In this document: positions 8,341 to 15,458 of the stretch, piece after piece
Numbering within the stretch: the first letter of the stretch is position 1
Layout of the letters: every line of letters starts with the position of its first letter
Source: Gallionella sp.
GTDB lineage: Bacteria > Pseudomonadota > Gammaproteobacteria > Burkholderiales > Gallionellaceae
Length of the DNA: 64,000 bases
Direction: 5' to 3'
Assembly (NCBI GenBank): GCA_030681375.1
Contig: JAUXWM010000086.1
Coordinates: forward strand, 526-64,525
Notes under the pieces: model-generated
The model's database searches: none
What the model was told of the DNA's origin: nothing
Seen by the model: only the letters and a program-made list of their open reading frames with translations
Translations under genes and position numbers: made by a program

Positions 8341-8793
8341 ATGAAAACGGAGCGCCAACAACGCATTAGCAAAATACTGATCCCGCTCGACGGTTCATCC
8401 AGCGCGGAGCGCGCGGTGGAGTATGTCATCGAGTACATGGATACGCTGAAACAGCCGCCGAAGCTGTTGCTGTTGAATGTGCAATGGAAGATTGCGACAG
8501 GCAACGTCAAGCTGTTCATCGATCAGGACACCATCAACGATTATTATCGTGAACAAGGCATGGCCGCATTCCAGCAGGCGCGCGCCAAGCTGGATGCCGC
8601 GCATCTTCCCTATCAATATCACGTCAGCGTCGGCACGCCTGCTGAAGCCATCGTGCAATATGCACGTGAGCAGGAGGTGGATCAGATCGTGATGTGCAGG
8701 CAGGGAGAGGGCGGCCTGAAAACATTGCTGCTGGGCTCCGTGGTCTCTAAGGTATTGCATCTGGCTGAATGTCCGGTATTGTTGGTCAAATAA
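8341..8793 (+). CDS. Universal stress protein (UspA family)
   Basis: KILIPLDGSSSAERA start; IVMCRQG...LLGSVVSKVLHLAECPVLLVK end. Confidence 0.92.
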   Translation: MKTERQQRISKILIPLDGSSSAERAVEYVIEYMDTLKQPPKLLLLNVQWKIATGNVKLFIDQDTINDYYREQGMAAFQQARAKLDAAHLPYQYHVSVGTPAEAIVQYAREQEVDQIVMCRQGEGGLKTLLLGSVVSKVLHLAECPVLLVK

Positions 8794-8798
8794 GGATT

Positions 8799-9626
8799 AT
8801 GAAATTGGAAGATGCGCTGGAAATCGTAGCTCAAACTCATTCCGGCATGGTGCGTGCGCACAACGAAGACAGTATCGCCACGGATGCAGCCTGCGGTCTG
8901 GTCGTGCTGGCCGATGGCATGGGTGGCTACAATGCGGGTGAAGTCGCCAGCGGTATTGCGGTTTCGGTGATGATGACCGAGGTTGCGCCCCCACTGAAGG
9001 AATCCAGTCCCATCCGGCGGGATGAGGCAAGCGGCGAGGAGCTGGCCGTTGTGCTGCTGAACAAAAGCATCCATCGAGCCAATGAGTCGATTTATCAGGC
9101 GTCGCAGAGTCAGGCACAATACGCCGGGATGGGGACGACGGTTGTTGCAGCGCTGTTTTATGATAACCGCGTAGCAGTCGGTCACGTCGGTGATTCGCGC
9201 CTCTATCGTTTGCGCGGTGAGATTCTGGAACTGATTACCCGCGACCACTCATTGCTGCAAGAGCAGATAGACAGCGGGGTGATTAGCATCGAACAGGCGC
9301 GTCATTCTCAAAACAGAAATCTGGTAACGCGTGCTGTCGGTATCGATGCCGAGGTGATTCCGGAAATTCATCTGCATGAGGTACAGCAGGGTGATATTTA
9401 TCTGCTTTGTTCGGACGGTCTGAACGATATGGTAGAAGATGACGATATTCAATCCATTGTGTATGCGATGCAGGGTAATCTGGCGCTTGCCGCAGAGCAG
9501 TTAATCCAGGCTGCGAATGACAATGGGGGGCGTGACAATGTTTCGGTGATTTTGGTCAAAGTGAAGCAGTCGTTTGCGCAGCCACGCAGTTTCCTGGCAA
9601 GGCTGCTTAACTGGTTAAAGAAATGA
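8799..9626 (+). CDS. PP2C/PPM family Ser/Thr protein phosphatase (Stp1-like)
   Basis: [39 protein letters not shown] motifs. AAGGA precedes ATG 8799. Confidence 0.95.
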   Translation: MKLEDALEIVAQTHSGMVRAHNEDSIATDAACGLVVLADGMGGYNAGEVASGIAVSVMMTEVAPPLKESSPIRRDEASGEELAVVLLNKSIHRANESIYQASQSQAQYAGMGTTVVAALFYDNRVAVGHVGDSRLYRLRGEILELITRDHSLLQEQIDSGVISIEQARHSQNRNLVTRAVGIDAEVIPEIHLHEVQQGDIYLLCSDGLNDMVEDDDIQSIVYAMQGNLALAAEQLIQAANDNGGRDNVSVILVKVKQSFAQPRSFLARLLNWLKK

Positions 9627-9639
9627 GAGAGACGGGACT

Positions 9640-10398
9640 ATGACGGCAAAATTGATACTGAGCCTGGATGGGACGCTCATTCAGGAATATCTGCTGAGCA
9701 AGGAACACACGACCATAGGCCGCAAGGCGCACAACGACATTGTTATCGATAATCTGGCCGTGAGTAGTGAACACGCGGCTGTCGTCACCATCCTGCATGA
9801 TTCTTTTCTGGAAGATTTGAACAGCACGAATGGTCTGACCGTTAACGGGATTTCTACCCGTAAGCATTTTTTGCAGAATAACGATCTGATCGAGATCGGC
9901 AAGTACCAGTTGAAATATCTGAACGATCAAGTCAGCAAAACGAATGCCGCTGATTTTGAGAAGACCATGATTATGCGTGCGCCTGTGTTAGCTGTTCCGC
10001 CTCCTGCGGATAAGCCGGGGGATACCGGTGTGTTCCATACGGCCGACTTGCAGGCGGGCAAACCCGCCGCCACGCCCGAGGCTGACATAAACCCGGTCAA
10101 ACCCGTGCTGCCTGCTGCCGCGCAGCCTGCTGTGGCGCGCGCCGCGATACAGCTTCTGAATGGCCCGAATGCGGGCAAGGAACTTGAATTGGTCAAAGGG
10201 CTGACCACGTTGGGCAAGCCGGGCGTGCAGGTTGTAGTATTGACCCGTCGCCCCCATGGCTTTTTTATTACTCATGTCGAGGGCGCAAATTTCCCCTCGG
10301 TGAATGGTCAGCTTATGGATGGCAAGCCGCTACAGTTGAATGATCATGATTTAATTGAGCTGGCGGGGGTAAAGATGGAGTTTTATTTGAAGGGCTAG
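9640..10398 (+). CDS. FHA-domain protein (N-terminal canonical FHA, Pro/Ala linker, C-terminal degenerate FHA)
   Basis: TIGRKAHND...VSSEHA...DLNSTNG...NG fits the pThr-binding FHA pattern. The C-terminal repeat (TTLGKPG...SVNG...DHDLIELAG) lacks the GR and SxxH residues. Confidence 0.9.
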   Translation: MTAKLILSLDGTLIQEYLLSKEHTTIGRKAHNDIVIDNLAVSSEHAAVVTILHDSFLEDLNSTNGLTVNGISTRKHFLQNNDLIEIGKYQLKYLNDQVSKTNAADFEKTMIMRAPVLAVPPPADKPGDTGVFHTADLQAGKPAATPEADINPVKPVLPAAAQPAVARAAIQLLNGPNAGKELELVKGLTTLGKPGVQVVVLTRRPHGFFITHVEGANFPSVNGQLMDGKPLQLNDHDLIELAGVKMEFYLKG

Positions 10399-13680: not shown

Positions 13681-13681
13681 G

Positions 13682-13767
13682 GTAGGGTGGGCAGGTTTGT
13701 GCCCACGCTGATCTTACACCGATAAGCATAATATAAGGCGTGGGCAGATGAAGCTTGCCCACCCTAC
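13682..13767. repeat. GTAG-tagged REP doublet (REPIN-like)
   Basis: gtagggtgggcaggtttgtgcccacgc ... gcgtgggcagatgaagcttgcccaccctac in inverted orientation. Confidence 0.85.
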
Positions 13768-13796
13768 ACGCTCACCACTTGCCACTGACTATTCAC

Positions 13797-15458
13797 ATGC
13801 CCACTACCAGTAAGCTGATTTATCGCCTGAAAGAACTCAACGAGATCGGTATCGCGCTGTCGCAGCAACACGATATCAATAGCTTGCTTGAGTTGATCCT
13901 CGAAGCCTCCAGGCGGATTACGCGTGCGGATGCCGGTACGCTTTATCTGCACGATCCCGAACAGCGTGTGTTGCGCTTTGAGATTGTGCGCACCGATTCG
14001 CTGAATATTGCCATGGGTGGTGTCAGTGGCGAGCCTATCGGCTATTACCCGGTGCAGTTGTATGATCTGTCGGGCAAGCCGAATCATGCGATGGTGGTGT
14101 GCCATGCTGTTTTGAGCCGAGAAACGGTGAATATCCCCGATGCCTATAAGGCTCAAGACTATGATTTCACCGGCACACGAAATTTTGACGCCAAGACCGG
14201 CTACCATTCGCAGTCCTTTCTGAACGTGCCGATGTGTGATCACGAGGGCGAAGTTATCGGTGTTTTGCAGCTGATTAACGCACAAGACCGTGCCAGCGGC
14301 GCGATTGTGCCGTTTTCTGCCGATGATCAGCAGCTGGTCGAGTCACTGGCTTCGCAGGCGGCTATTGCACTGACCAATCGTCGTCTGATTCAACAGCTGG
14401 AGGGCTTGTTTGAGTCCTTTATTCAGCTGATCAATAACGCGATAGATGACAAATCCCCCTATACCGGCGGGCATTGTTCCCGCGTGCCCGAACTGACCAT
14501 GATGCTGGCTGATGCGGTCACACGCACCAAACAGGGGCCGCTCAAGGATTTCGTGATGACCGAAGAGGACAGGCGCGAATTGAAAATTGCCGGGCTGCTG
14601 CATGATTGCGGAAAAATCACCACGCCGGTGCATGTGGTGGATAAGCCGACCAAGCTGCATACGCTGTTCGACCGCATTCAGTTGCTGGATACCCGTTTCG
14701 AAGTGCTCAAGCGCGATGCTGAAATCGCCATGTTGCGCGCCTTGGCAAGCTCCCCTCGCCCGCAGGCGGGAGAGGGGTTGGGTGAGAGGGGCGTTGACGA
14801 GGCCGCCATTCGTGCCGAGTATGAGGCGCGCATACGACAACTGGATGATGACCGTGAATTTCTGCGGCATTGCAATATCGGGCGCGAGGCCATGCCGCAA
14901 TCTGCCGTTAAACGTGTACAGGCTATTGCGCATTATCCGTGGCGTGATAACGAAGGGAAAATAACCAGCTTTCTCAGTGATGACGAAGTCGAGAACCTGA
15001 CCATACGTTCAGGAACCTTGACCGGCGCAGAACGTGAAATCATTAATCGCCATATTGAAGTCACCATCAGAATGTTGGAGTCGCTCCCCTGGCCAAAACA
15101 TCTGAAGAATGTGCCTGAATATGCTGCGGGGCATCACGAACGCATGGATGGCAAGGGTTATCCGCGTGGTCTGACGCGCAGCCAGATGTCGCTCCAGGCC
15201 AGAGTCATGGGTATTGCCGACATCTTCGAGGCGCTGACCGCCAAGGACAGACCCTATAAAGCCGGCAAGACACTCACCGAATCGTTGACCATACTCGGTA
15301 AATTCAAGCTGGGCGGACACATCGATCCCGACTTATTCGATGTCTTTATCCGTGAAAAAGTGTATCTCGACTACGCGTGGAAATTTCTCGCACCAGAGCA
15401 GATAGACGAGGTCGATCTGAGCAAAATACCGGGCGTGAGTCTGGTGAACGTGGACTGA
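13797..15458 (+). CDS. GAF-HD-GYP cyclic-di-nucleotide phosphodiesterase
   Basis: GAF (ADAGTLYL...VIGVLQLINA), HDCGK, HHERMDGKGYPRGL, IADIFEALTAKDRPYK. The TTG start at 13755 lies inside the REP, so ATG 13797 is preferred. Confidence 0.93.
   Translation: MPTTSKLIYRLKELNEIGIALSQQHDINSLLELILEASRRITRADAGTLYLHDPEQRVLRFEIVRTDSLNIAMGGVSGEPIGYYPVQLYDLSGKPNHAMVVCHAVLSRETVNIPDAYKAQDYDFTGTRNFDAKTGYHSQSFLNVPMCDHEGEVIGVLQLINAQDRASGAIVPFSADDQQLVESLASQAAIALTNRRLIQQLEGLFESFIQLINNAIDDKSPYTGGHCSRVPELTMMLADAVTRTKQGPLKDFVMTEEDRRELKIAGLLHDCGKITTPVHVVDKPTKLHTLFDRIQLLDTRFEVLKRDAEIAMLRALASSPRPQAGEGLGERGVDEAAIRAEYEARIRQLDDDREFLRHCNIGREAMPQSAVKRVQAIAHYPWRDNEGKITSFLSDDEVENLTIRSGTLTGAEREIINRHIEVTIRMLESLPWPKHLKNVPEYAAGHHERMDGKGYPRGLTRSQMSLQARVMGIADIFEALTAKDRPYKAGKTLTESLTILGKFKLGGHIDPDLFDVFIREKVYLDYAWKFLAPEQIDEVDLSKIPGVSLVNVD
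14750..14791 (+). repeat. Palindromic CCCTCTCCC/GGGAGAGGG-type element inserted in frame
   Basis: ctcccctcgcccgcaggcgggagaggggttgggtgagagggg, read as SPRPQAGEGLGERG inside the HD-GYP protein. Confidence 0.75.

Follow-up and report, generated by a model that had tools for sequence, protein, structure and literature searches.

A conserved betaproteobacterial gene cluster around a GAF-bearing secretion-type ATPase in Gallionella: a possible cAMP- and phosphothreonine-gated accessory motor linked to a type IV pilus locus

Contig JAUXWM010000086.1 of Gallionella sp. (assembly GCA_030681375.1) contains, in the stretch of 64,000 nucleotides analysed here (the window), a block of six genes that occupies positions 8341-15458. 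The block encodes a universal stress protein (USP), a PP2C-type phosphatase, an FHA protein, a phosphodiesterase (PDE) of the metallo-beta-lactamase (MBL) fold, a T2SSE ATPase with a GAF domain, and a GAF-HD-GYP enzyme. The order of the cluster is conserved in several betaproteobacterial families, and its ATPase is an orphan that falls outside both PilB and GspE by curated cut-offs. Our tentative reading, which we hold at a little below even confidence, is that the cluster encodes an accessory assembly ATPase gated by cyclic AMP (cAMP) and phosphothreonine and tied to a type IV pilus locus, with the HD-GYP enzyme as a parallel output. An earlier, sequence-only reading of the window had proposed a second-messenger-gated accessory motor. 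The orphan status of the ATPase and the class of its GAF domain agree with this proposal, but its connection to the pilus machinery is one of gene neighbourhood.

The homologues of the ATPase were looked up on their own contigs, one genome per species was scanned, and all proteins of the cluster were mapped onto the fetched loci (numbered with the prefix L below). The genome scan used generic Walker A/B patterns and yielded at least 15 cluster loci, the taxonomic range of which is that of a sample and not of a census. A shared gene order was found in these loci (the window and 14 others), which belong to Gallionellaceae, Propionivibrio, Burkholderiales, Polaromonas and unclassified Betaproteobacteria. 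Because the order repeats in 14 other loci, the arrangement is far beyond chance.

The full order includes (TerC-USP), a CHASE2-Hanks kinase, PP2C, FHA, a CHASE2-class III cyclase, PDE, a protein with a domain binding cyclic nucleoside monophosphates (cNMP) and a rhodanese domain, the GAF-ATPase, and GAF-HD-GYP. It is carried by Ferrigenium kumadai, two other Gallionellaceae, Propionivibrio, one metagenome-assembled genome (MAG) of Burkholderiales and several unclassified Betaproteobacteria, and is commonly followed by a pilin gene and a gene of a TPR protein. The sequence-only reading had raised the question of whether a Hanks kinase or a nucleotide cyclase joins the cluster elsewhere. Both do so, each with a CHASE2 sensor, and a cNMP-binding protein joins them. 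The expected co-occurrence of the genes in other genomes was likewise found, in several betaproteobacterial families.

A trimmed cluster without the kinase, the cyclase and the cNMP-binding protein is present in the window, in Gallionella capsiferriformans ES-2 and in three further close relatives. The ATPases of the trimmed-cluster genomes are 86-90% identical to that of the window, and those of the full-cluster carriers are 78-85% identical to it. Since the ATPases of the trimmed genomes are the nearest ones to that of the window, the distribution fits a single loss of the three genes in the Gallionella lineage. The window keeps readers and erasers alone, and thus depends on inputs from elsewhere. 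The PDE accompanies the ATPase more constantly than any other neighbour (11 of 15 loci). The HD-GYP gene is absent in two lineages, L086 and L008.

Two of the loci show local peculiarities. In L006 (from a betaproteobacterial MAG), the genes between the CHASE2 cyclase and the ATPase (6895-9949 of that locus) encode an outer-membrane protein of the TPR/Slam-like kind and a protein with a FecR domain. This pair occupies the slot of the PDE and the cNMP-binding protein in the other loci, and its members may be partners of the CHASE2 sensors. The full-cluster carrier L087 encodes, between bepA and valS (18116-19964), a second kinase, fused to a cNMP-binding domain, which is followed by rhodanese and TusA genes. 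Rhodanese occurs twice in cAMP-linked proteins of the L087 locus. At the equivalent bepA-valS spot the window has only a 154-aa open reading frame (ORF) at 21005-21469.

The core of the ATPase is a complete one of the assembly-type T2SSE kind, with Walker A (GPTGSGKTT), Walker B, Asp box, His box, an N1-like domain and a tetracysteine site. The sequences GPTGSGKTT, DPDVIMVGEMRD and TGHLVFATLHTN are all present and are invariant across the family alignment, which assigns the protein to the T2SSE superfamily. It is 83-100% identical to proteins labelled Gallionella, Ferrigenium, Gallionellaceae or Nitrosomonadales. The score of the ATPase is 476.7 bits against the PilB equivalog TIGR02538 (cut-off 675.65) and 441.5 bits against the GspE/MshE equivalog TIGR02533 (cut-off 630.25). 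Positive controls were included in the same scan: PilBs of beta- and gammaproteobacteria scored 798-888 bits (the betaproteobacterial ones 798-832), and GspE/MshE-like proteins of L033, L034, L043 and L077 scored 660-684 bits. These control proteins are just 36-41% identical to the window ATPase over the matched part. PilB or GspE orthology of the ATPase was ruled out by these curated cut-offs, which the positive controls pass.

PilC-like queries taken from beside canonical PilBs matched 43 of the fetched loci, where they adjoin canonical ATPases. No PilC-like gene was found in loci with a GAF-ATPase or a same-clade ATPase (within 10 kb), and none was found in the 64-kb window. Since no PilC-like gene lies near the GAF-ATPases, we class the ATPase as an orphan paralogue, which by the NCBI curated cut-offs is neither PilB nor GspE. 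The sequence-only reading had also noted that the block itself has no platform, secretin or pseudopilin gene, and we confirmed this.

GAF-bearing T2SSE ATPases form a broad family, in which dozens of 50%-identity clusters align end to end and some members have two or three GAFs. The betaproteobacterial cluster type has two zinc-site CxxC pairs about 61 residues apart (ATPase residues ~652-720, window 13250-13460). This spacing is about 35 residues longer than in most other aligned GAF-ATPases and represents a lineage-specific insert. A same-clade ATPase of Methylotenera (L019) has a different N-terminal domain (DUF4388-MshEN-ATPase) and is flanked by GGDEF and GGDEF-EAL genes. A deltaproteobacterial GAF-ATPase, that of the Olavius Delta 4 symbiont (L027), is surrounded by housekeeping genes. 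No machine partner was found in the neighbourhood of the distant L027 or of the same-clade L019.

The GAF domain of the ATPase is closest to both cAMP-binding GAFs of CyaB2 from Anabaena (1ykd, E = 2e-21). The next matches are the GAF of the HD-GYP enzyme PmGH and then the cGMP- or cAMP-binding GAFs of PDE6, PDE2, PDE10 and PDE5; altogether, cNMP-binding GAFs make up 19 of the 20 best solved relatives. In CyaB2 GAF-B the cAMP contacts are R291, T293, I308, D356 and N359 (PMC4411481). The HMMER alignment places R, T, V, D and T of the ATPase GAF at these positions, within FNADRLTVY, SKVK and EVDRRTGYRT. We count four of the five contacts as kept; the fifth is Thr, as in CyaB2 GAF-A. The first four (R, T, V, D) are invariant in 16 ATPase orthologues, from full and reduced clusters alike. 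Both the nearest relatives and the contact residues support the assignment of this domain to the cNMP-binding GAF class, and it is a probable cAMP sensor.

The other putative ligand-binding region of the ATPase is MshEN. The Pfam match (41 bits) covers its C-terminal subdomain only. The definition of the MshEN motif that binds cyclic di-GMP (c-di-GMP) was taken from PMC5013675. In the 53 residues before the Pfam match, read in register from ALSGFFGV, motif I is T-R-Y-D-Y-L-V-T-G-A-V-L...A and motif II is D-I-E-E-V-L-F-D-E-F-Q-V...F. Neither of the 24-residue motifs has the RLG start or the closing Gln. Three of the four Gly residues that define binders (positions 11, 40 and 47) are replaced, and position 18 is Ala, which the relaxed motif permits. 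On this degenerate motif we rejected the ATPase as a c-di-GMP receptor via MshEN. Since the motif test failed, the HD-GYP enzyme is more likely to be a parallel output than a regulator of the ATPase through MshEN.

The PDE has the HTHMDH signature and the downstream His/Asp/His. The score of PF02112 exceeds the gathering score (53.3 against 23.7 bits), and the match spans only profile positions 83-175 of 340. Yeast PDE1 (4ojv) matches the protein over HxHxDH...WPD with E = 1e-5, and orthologues of the window PDE have precomputed matches to PF23023 and PF02112. In full clusters the gene sits directly 3' of that of the adenylate cyclase. The sequence-only reading had called the protein a class II cNMP phosphodiesterase on the HxHxDH motif, and the partial PF02112 match now adds to this. 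The protein is probably a small MBL-fold PDE of the class II cNMP PDE or Apyc1 kind, i.e., a predicted cAMP eraser.

The cyclase of the full clusters retains both metal-binding Asp residues, Lys in DKYMGD and Thr in TVMGDAVNLASR; this Lys/Thr specificity pair makes it a predicted cyclase of the adenylate type. In the cNMP-binding/rhodanese protein of the full clusters the phosphate-binding cassette is intact.

The best solved relatives of the HD-GYP enzyme are PmGH (4mcw, GAF-HD-GYP, 115.7 bits) and V-cGAP3 (5z7c, 76 bits). The metal ligands H, HD, H, HH and D are kept: GGHCSRV, LHDCGK, NRH, HHERMDGKGYP and IADIFEAL align to PmGH. The Glu of PmGH that binds the third metal, which we take to be E185, is Tyr here (KDPETQNH in PmGH, KSPYTGGH in the window), and this places the enzyme outside the trinuclear subtype. 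Its HD-GYP domain also bears an insert of about 110 aa. Thus the description of this HD-GYP as intact stands for the signature motif and the other metal ligands, but not for the third-metal Glu or the uninterrupted domain. The enzyme is probably a hydrolase of c-di-GMP or cyclic GMP-AMP (cGAMP) and would be the second output of the cluster.

The phosphothreonine branch is represented in the window by the PP2C and the FHA protein. The PP2C passes the Stp1/IreP equivalog cut-off and comes after the CHASE2-Hanks kinase in full clusters; it is predicted to erase phosphothreonine marks. The FHA protein consists of a canonical FHA domain (residues 1-95), a Pro-rich disordered linker and a C-terminal domain (~165-252). 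The N-terminal FHA has TIGRK, SSEH and STNG, as expected of a phosphothreonine reader. A Foldseek search with the AlphaFold2 model of the protein returned the FHA domains of Ki67, OdhI, GarA and DgcB (TMt 0.8-0.9), for the N-terminal domain only. The C-terminal domain is near-invariant in 40 homologues and all-beta in the model (predicted local distance difference test, pLDDT, 60-85). It aligns in register with the N-terminal FHA in a weak hhalign match (P ~1e-3, probability 20%). It has GK for GR and a deleted S-x-x-H loop, and the Arg, Ser and His of phosphothreonine binding are gone. We interpret it as a putative truncated, degenerate FHA-like domain. The double FHA of the sequence-only reading therefore holds for the canonical N-terminal copy, but the second copy appears to be a degenerate one, without the phosphothreonine-binding residues.

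The sole extra match in the tblastn search of the window is a second PP2C at 56363-57184. It is 34% identical to that of the cluster and lies in a housekeeping context beside yicC-gmk, RNase PH, Ham1/RdgB and HemN-like radical SAM genes, with no kinase or FHA gene adjoining. Next to this PP2C gene, at 54806-56323 on the minus strand, a single 505-aa ORF combines YicC-like N and C domains with a complete guanylate kinase. These are two adjacent genes in L086. The ORF is either a real fusion or the result of a stop codon lost in assembly.

The link to the pilus comes from the surroundings of the cluster. The gene pilA starts 849 nt past the block and has a textbook sigma-54 promoter, TGGCACGGCTATTGCT, at 16216-16231. 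The sequence-only reading had placed a sigma54-driven pilA about 850 nt downstream; the distance and the promoter are right, but the interval contains an inserted VapBC-like cassette. This cassette, preceded by a 19-bp perfect palindrome (operator) at 15494-15534, is absent from the corresponding spot in the close relatives L084 and L085. The insertion separates the HD-GYP gene from the upstream region of pilA, and we place it outside the module. Upstream of the sigma-54 promoter (16112-16231) lies an element ACTGACGAAATTCGTCAC-N-CTGACG with the palindrome GACGAAATTCGTC; it is shared with L084 and L085 and is a candidate PilR binding site. A strong terminator follows pilA at 16752-16764. The genes pilS (40660-42423) and pilR (ends at 43804) are also in the window, 24 kb beyond pilA.

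At least nine loci, belonging to several families, have a pilin gene after the cluster (L001, L002, L006, L008, L013, L015, L084, L085 and L087). A TPR protein and a BepA-like protease recur downstream of the cluster. The L086 ATPase has pilS and pilR as its direct neighbours. According to the genome paper of G. capsiferriformans ES-2 (PMC3770913), this strain possesses type IVa and MSHA pili but lacks type II secretion; the paper lists pilMNOPQ, minor pilins and pilT/U without mentioning pilB. Since type II secretion is missing in ES-2, the pilus systems are the platforms available there. It is on this evidence of gene neighbourhood that we suggest a motor acting on the type IV pilus machinery.

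The gene after pilA (16798-18444) encodes a 548-aa protein with a hydrophobic N-terminus, 430 residues without a Pfam match and C-terminal TPR repeats that are weakly PilW-like. It is conserved 3' of pilA in several families. Glycosyltransferase and nonulosonic-acid genes come after the TPR protein of this type in L002 and L009, a hint of pilin glycosylation. Between the TPR protein and the BepA-like M48 protease the window has a second PIN-domain ORF (18956-19390, 144 aa), which may be a remnant of a toxin-antitoxin system.

Comparison of the trimmed-cluster genomes gave ratios of nonsynonymous to synonymous substitution rates (dN/dS) of 0.04-0.14 for the six genes; the values are rough, with dS near saturation. 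The ratio is lowest for the ATPase (0.04-0.07) and is 0.09-0.13 for the PP2C. These ratios indicate purifying selection, and the remaining genes are not decaying. Near-identical DNA is present in groundwater metagenomes. In a groundwater metatranscriptome (run X11) short contigs cover all six genes. RNA contigs bridge four of the six junctions tested (TerC/USP, USP/PP2C, FHA/PDE and PDE/ATPase) and also HD-GYP/vapB; one contig bridges both TerC/USP and USP/PP2C. No terminator-like site was found on the plus strand between the genes of the block. These data fit co-transcription of the block.

On these grounds the following mechanism can be proposed. The full form would sense an outside cue through two membrane proteins whose CHASE2 ectodomains are related. 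The CHASE2-Hanks kinase would write phosphothreonine, and the CHASE2-adenylate cyclase would write cAMP. Three proteins would read cAMP: the ATPase, whose GAF might switch the motor either way, the HD-GYP enzyme, likewise through its GAF, and the cNMP-binding/rhodanese protein. The MBL-fold PDE would reset cAMP and the PP2C would reset the phosphothreonine mark. The FHA protein would read phosphothreonine, and its conserved second domain might dock onto the motor or a platform, as Fha1 does in type VI secretion. The motor would most likely drive extension of the type IV pilus with the adjacent pilin gene, borrowing a PilC/PilM platform encoded elsewhere. In parallel, the HD-GYP enzyme would lower c-di-GMP (or cGAMP). 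The trimmed cluster of the window would have lost its own kinase, cyclase and cNMP-binding protein and kept the readers, erasers and outputs, with inputs supplied by kinases and cyclases encoded elsewhere. The content, order and conservation of the genes, their catalytic and ligand-contact motifs, the orphan status of the ATPase and the expression in situ are observed. The conjectural parts of this scheme are that the ligand is cAMP, in which direction it regulates, what the FHA protein targets and that the partner is the pilus machine.

Several observations weigh against the proposal. No kinase or cyclase was found elsewhere in the 64-kb window by tblastn, and the window, ES-2 and three other lineages have the cluster with neither of them. 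The label G. capsiferriformans is absent among the best 120 relatives (all at least 76% identical) of the Ferrigenium cyclase, though a true orthologue might lie below these 120. The HD-GYP GAF keeps Thr and Asp, but the adenine-contacting Arg is replaced by Ala or Gly in all orthologues; this GAF may sense something other than cAMP, and its ligand is less certain. In L086 neither HD-GYP nor pilA lies beside the ATPase. The distant GAF-ATPases of Desulfobacterales, Desulfomicrobium and Polyangiales are orphans, surrounded by housekeeping genes and with no PDE or pilin gene nearby, and the pilus link thus holds in Betaproteobacteria only. In the metatranscriptome run X11, whose contigs are short and which possibly contains DNA, no RNA contig across PP2C/FHA or ATPase/HD-GYP was found.

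These points lend themselves to other explanations. The module may be real and its ATPase may act not on a type IV pilus but in another, unrecognised process, or as a nucleotide-dependent signalling switch, with pilA adjacent through a conserved insertion spot. The orphan ATPases in unrelated contexts (GGDEF and GGDEF-EAL genes in Methylotenera, housekeeping genes in the Olavius Delta 4 symbiont) speak for this, as do the lack of a platform gene by any member and the L086 ATPase without adjacent pilA. We nevertheless consider it unlikely, since the full assembly-ATPase core is kept, including an N1-like domain and a tetracysteine site of the kind usual in PilB/GspE, at least nine loci of several families have pilin genes after the cluster, and the neighbours of the L086 ATPase are pilS and pilR. 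In addition, type II secretion is missing from ES-2, which possesses two type IV pilus systems (PMC3770913). A different objection concerns the messenger: the GAFs could sense something other than cAMP (a different nucleotide, a metabolite, a redox signal), the MBL enzyme could be a nuclease or other hydrolase, and the cyclase could feed only the cNMP-binding/rhodanese protein. GAF ligands are indeed diverse, the PF02112 match covers a quarter of the model, the top NCBIfam matches of the PDE are RNase Z models (far below cut-off), reduced clusters retain the GAFs and the PDE without a cyclase, and the HD-GYP GAF has no Arg. Against these facts stand the solved relatives of the ATPase GAF, 19 of 20 of which bind cNMP, its invariant Arg, Thr and Asp, the position of the PDE directly after the cyclase in full clusters, and the match of yeast PDE1 across the class II signature. 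The balance makes a signal other than cAMP distinctly unlikely in our estimate.

It seems improbable that the ATPase is the main PilB of the organism with an acquired sensory domain. Its 476.7 bits are far from the PilB cut-off of 675.65, whereas betaproteobacterial PilBs score 798-832 bits and are 40-41% identical to it over the ATPase half (residues ~345-790). Neither pilC nor pilD is adjacent, and the clade includes orphan ATPases from taxa that, as is generally known, have a canonical PilB too. Such a role would nevertheless explain the usual pilB place of the gene, by pilA and near pilS/pilR, the absence of another PilB-like gene from the window and the extreme conservation of the protein, and the ES-2 genome paper names no pilB (PMC3770913). 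The least probable of the readings, to which we give very little credence, is a c-di-GMP link in which the HD-GYP enzyme controls c-di-GMP that binds MshEN of the ATPase, as in MshE of Vibrio. The Pfam MshEN match of 41 bits, the great wealth of c-di-GMP enzymes in Gallionella and the GGDEF/EAL genes that flank the Methylotenera relative are in line with it. Both MshEN motifs are degenerate, however, with RLG, Gln and three of the four Gly lost (motif of PMC5013675).

If the preferred reading of a cAMP- and phosphothreonine-gated accessory motor is true, the cluster would let cAMP and phosphothreonine act directly, at the post-translational level, on an ATPase of the pilus family that is encoded with a matched cyclase, PDE, kinase, phosphatase and FHA adaptor, and three signalling chemistries would physically meet at this motor. 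The known control of type IV pilus motors is mainly exerted via c-di-GMP (MshE, FimX-PilZ-PilB) and at the level of transcription (cAMP-Vfr, PilSR). A bolder version, which we hold as possible and rather doubtful, is that the cluster represents an unrecognised class of pilus-type motors. In such a class a T2SSE ATPase would be switched directly by cAMP via a fused GAF, co-regulated by CHASE2-kinase/PP2C/FHA and partnered with a GAF-HD-GYP enzyme. A single outside signal would thereby bring about both pilus extension and a fall of c-di-GMP by means of one portable cluster, which Gallionella proper would have rewired through loss of the dedicated sensors. The literature searched, which missed most subscription journals, gave no description of a GAF-bearing PilB/GspE ATPase or of the cluster. 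The cluster is widespread in environmentally important Betaproteobacteria (iron oxidisers, Propionivibrio, Burkholderiales), and its ATPase is among the most conserved proteins of the region. Since full and trimmed versions both occur naturally, they can readily be compared to see which inputs matter.

The coordinates of the block and its neighbours are collected in Table 1. All six ORFs are on the plus strand and lie where the sequence-only reading had placed them. With the chosen starts the intergenic gaps are 5, 13, 54, 78 and 74-116 nt, the last of which depends on the HD-GYP start (13755 or 13797). The ORF coordinates and the Pfam/NCBIfam matches confirm the six same-strand genes, their gaps of 5-116 nt and the named domains, including a Pfam GAF match in both the ATPase and the HD-GYP enzyme.

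Table 1. Genes of the block and adjacent features in the window
Feature	Position	Strand	Length, matches and remarks
TerC/YjbE	7591-8331		before USP
USP (universal stress protein)	8341-8793	+	150 aa; PF00582 90.8 bits
PP2C-type Ser/Thr phosphatase	8799-9626	+	275 aa; NCBIfam Stp1/IreP NF033484 246 bits (cut-off 230); PF13672, PF00481
FHA protein	9640-10398	+	252 aa; PF00498 61.8 bits, residues 24-87
MBL-fold phosphodiesterase (PDE)	10453-11217	+	254 aa; HTHMDH; PF02112 53.3 bits; PF12706 65 bits
GAF-MshEN-T2SSE ATPase	11296-13680	+	794 aa; PF00437 379 bits; GAF; MshEN
GAF-HD-GYP phosphodiesterase (predicted)	13755/13797-15458	+	553-567 aa; PF13487 141 bits; GAF 64.6 bits; HHERMDGKGYP
Ribbon-helix-helix (RHH) antitoxin / PIN toxin (VapBC-like) cassette	15494-16114	+	PF01402, PF01850
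pilA with upstream repeats and sigma-54 promoter	16112-16726 (pilA 16307-16726)	+	PF07963, PF00114; major type IV pilin gene, repeats conserved

The USP was counted as a member of the module in the sequence-only reading, and this was not borne out. Its gene always comes after TerC/YjbE in Gallionellaceae (L001, L002, L004, L084-L087), and it was not detected in the clusters of other families among the mapped loci. Its membership is doubtful, and we treat it as a neighbour that travels with TerC. Two further ideas about the region were rejected. Riboswitch control via the upstream TerC/YjbE was discarded, as an Rfam search of the whole window gave just a tRNA. A defence island was discarded as well, as PADLOC gave weak generic matches alone (PP2C to PDC-M21C, 34 bits; the P-loop of the ATPase to mad8, 28 bits).

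Parts of the cluster resemble several known systems. In MshE of Vibrio cholerae and in PilB-PilZ-FimX of Xanthomonas a second messenger likewise sets a hexameric T2SSE ATPase, at its N-terminus or via adaptors, and the core N1-N2-C1 layout with the tetracysteine site is common to MshE, PilB and the ATPase studied here. The latter differs in that the sensor is a fused GAF of the cNMP type, the MshEN motif is degenerate, the protein falls outside the PilB and GspE/MshE equivalogs, and no platform gene is nearby.

The threonine phosphorylation pathway of type VI secretion in Pseudomonas aeruginosa includes the kinase PpkA, the PP2C phosphatase PppA and Fha1. Like the cluster, it combines a membrane-bound Hanks kinase that senses the outside with a PP2C and an FHA adaptor, all encoded with an ATPase-driven envelope machine, and the logic is one of post-translational gating. 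In our case the motor is a T2SSE ATPase, the kinase is absent from the window, and the FHA protein has a putative extra, degenerate FHA-like domain. No type VI genes were found in the window or the examined loci, and ES-2 is reported to be without type VI secretion. The likeness to this pathway is one of logic.

The PDE has in common with the class II PDEs (yeast PDE1, CpdP of Vibrio) and with phage Apyc1 the MBL fold and HxHxDH followed by a WPD segment. It is much shorter than yeast PDE1 (254 against 369 aa), its Pfam match is partial, and its substrate is a predicted one. CyaB2 of Anabaena and PDE2/5/6/10 belong with the ATPase GAF to one GAF subfamily, in which the ligand-bound GAF controls a fused catalytic domain. 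Here the output is a secretion/pilus ATPase or an HD-GYP enzyme instead of a cyclase or a class I PDE, and there is a single GAF instead of a tandem pair. Finally, PmGH of Persephonella marina (4mcw) has the same GAF and HD-GYP architecture with conserved metal ligands, whereas the Gallionella protein has the insert of about 110 aa and Tyr for the third-metal Glu and is set in a cluster with a kinase, a cyclase and an ATPase.

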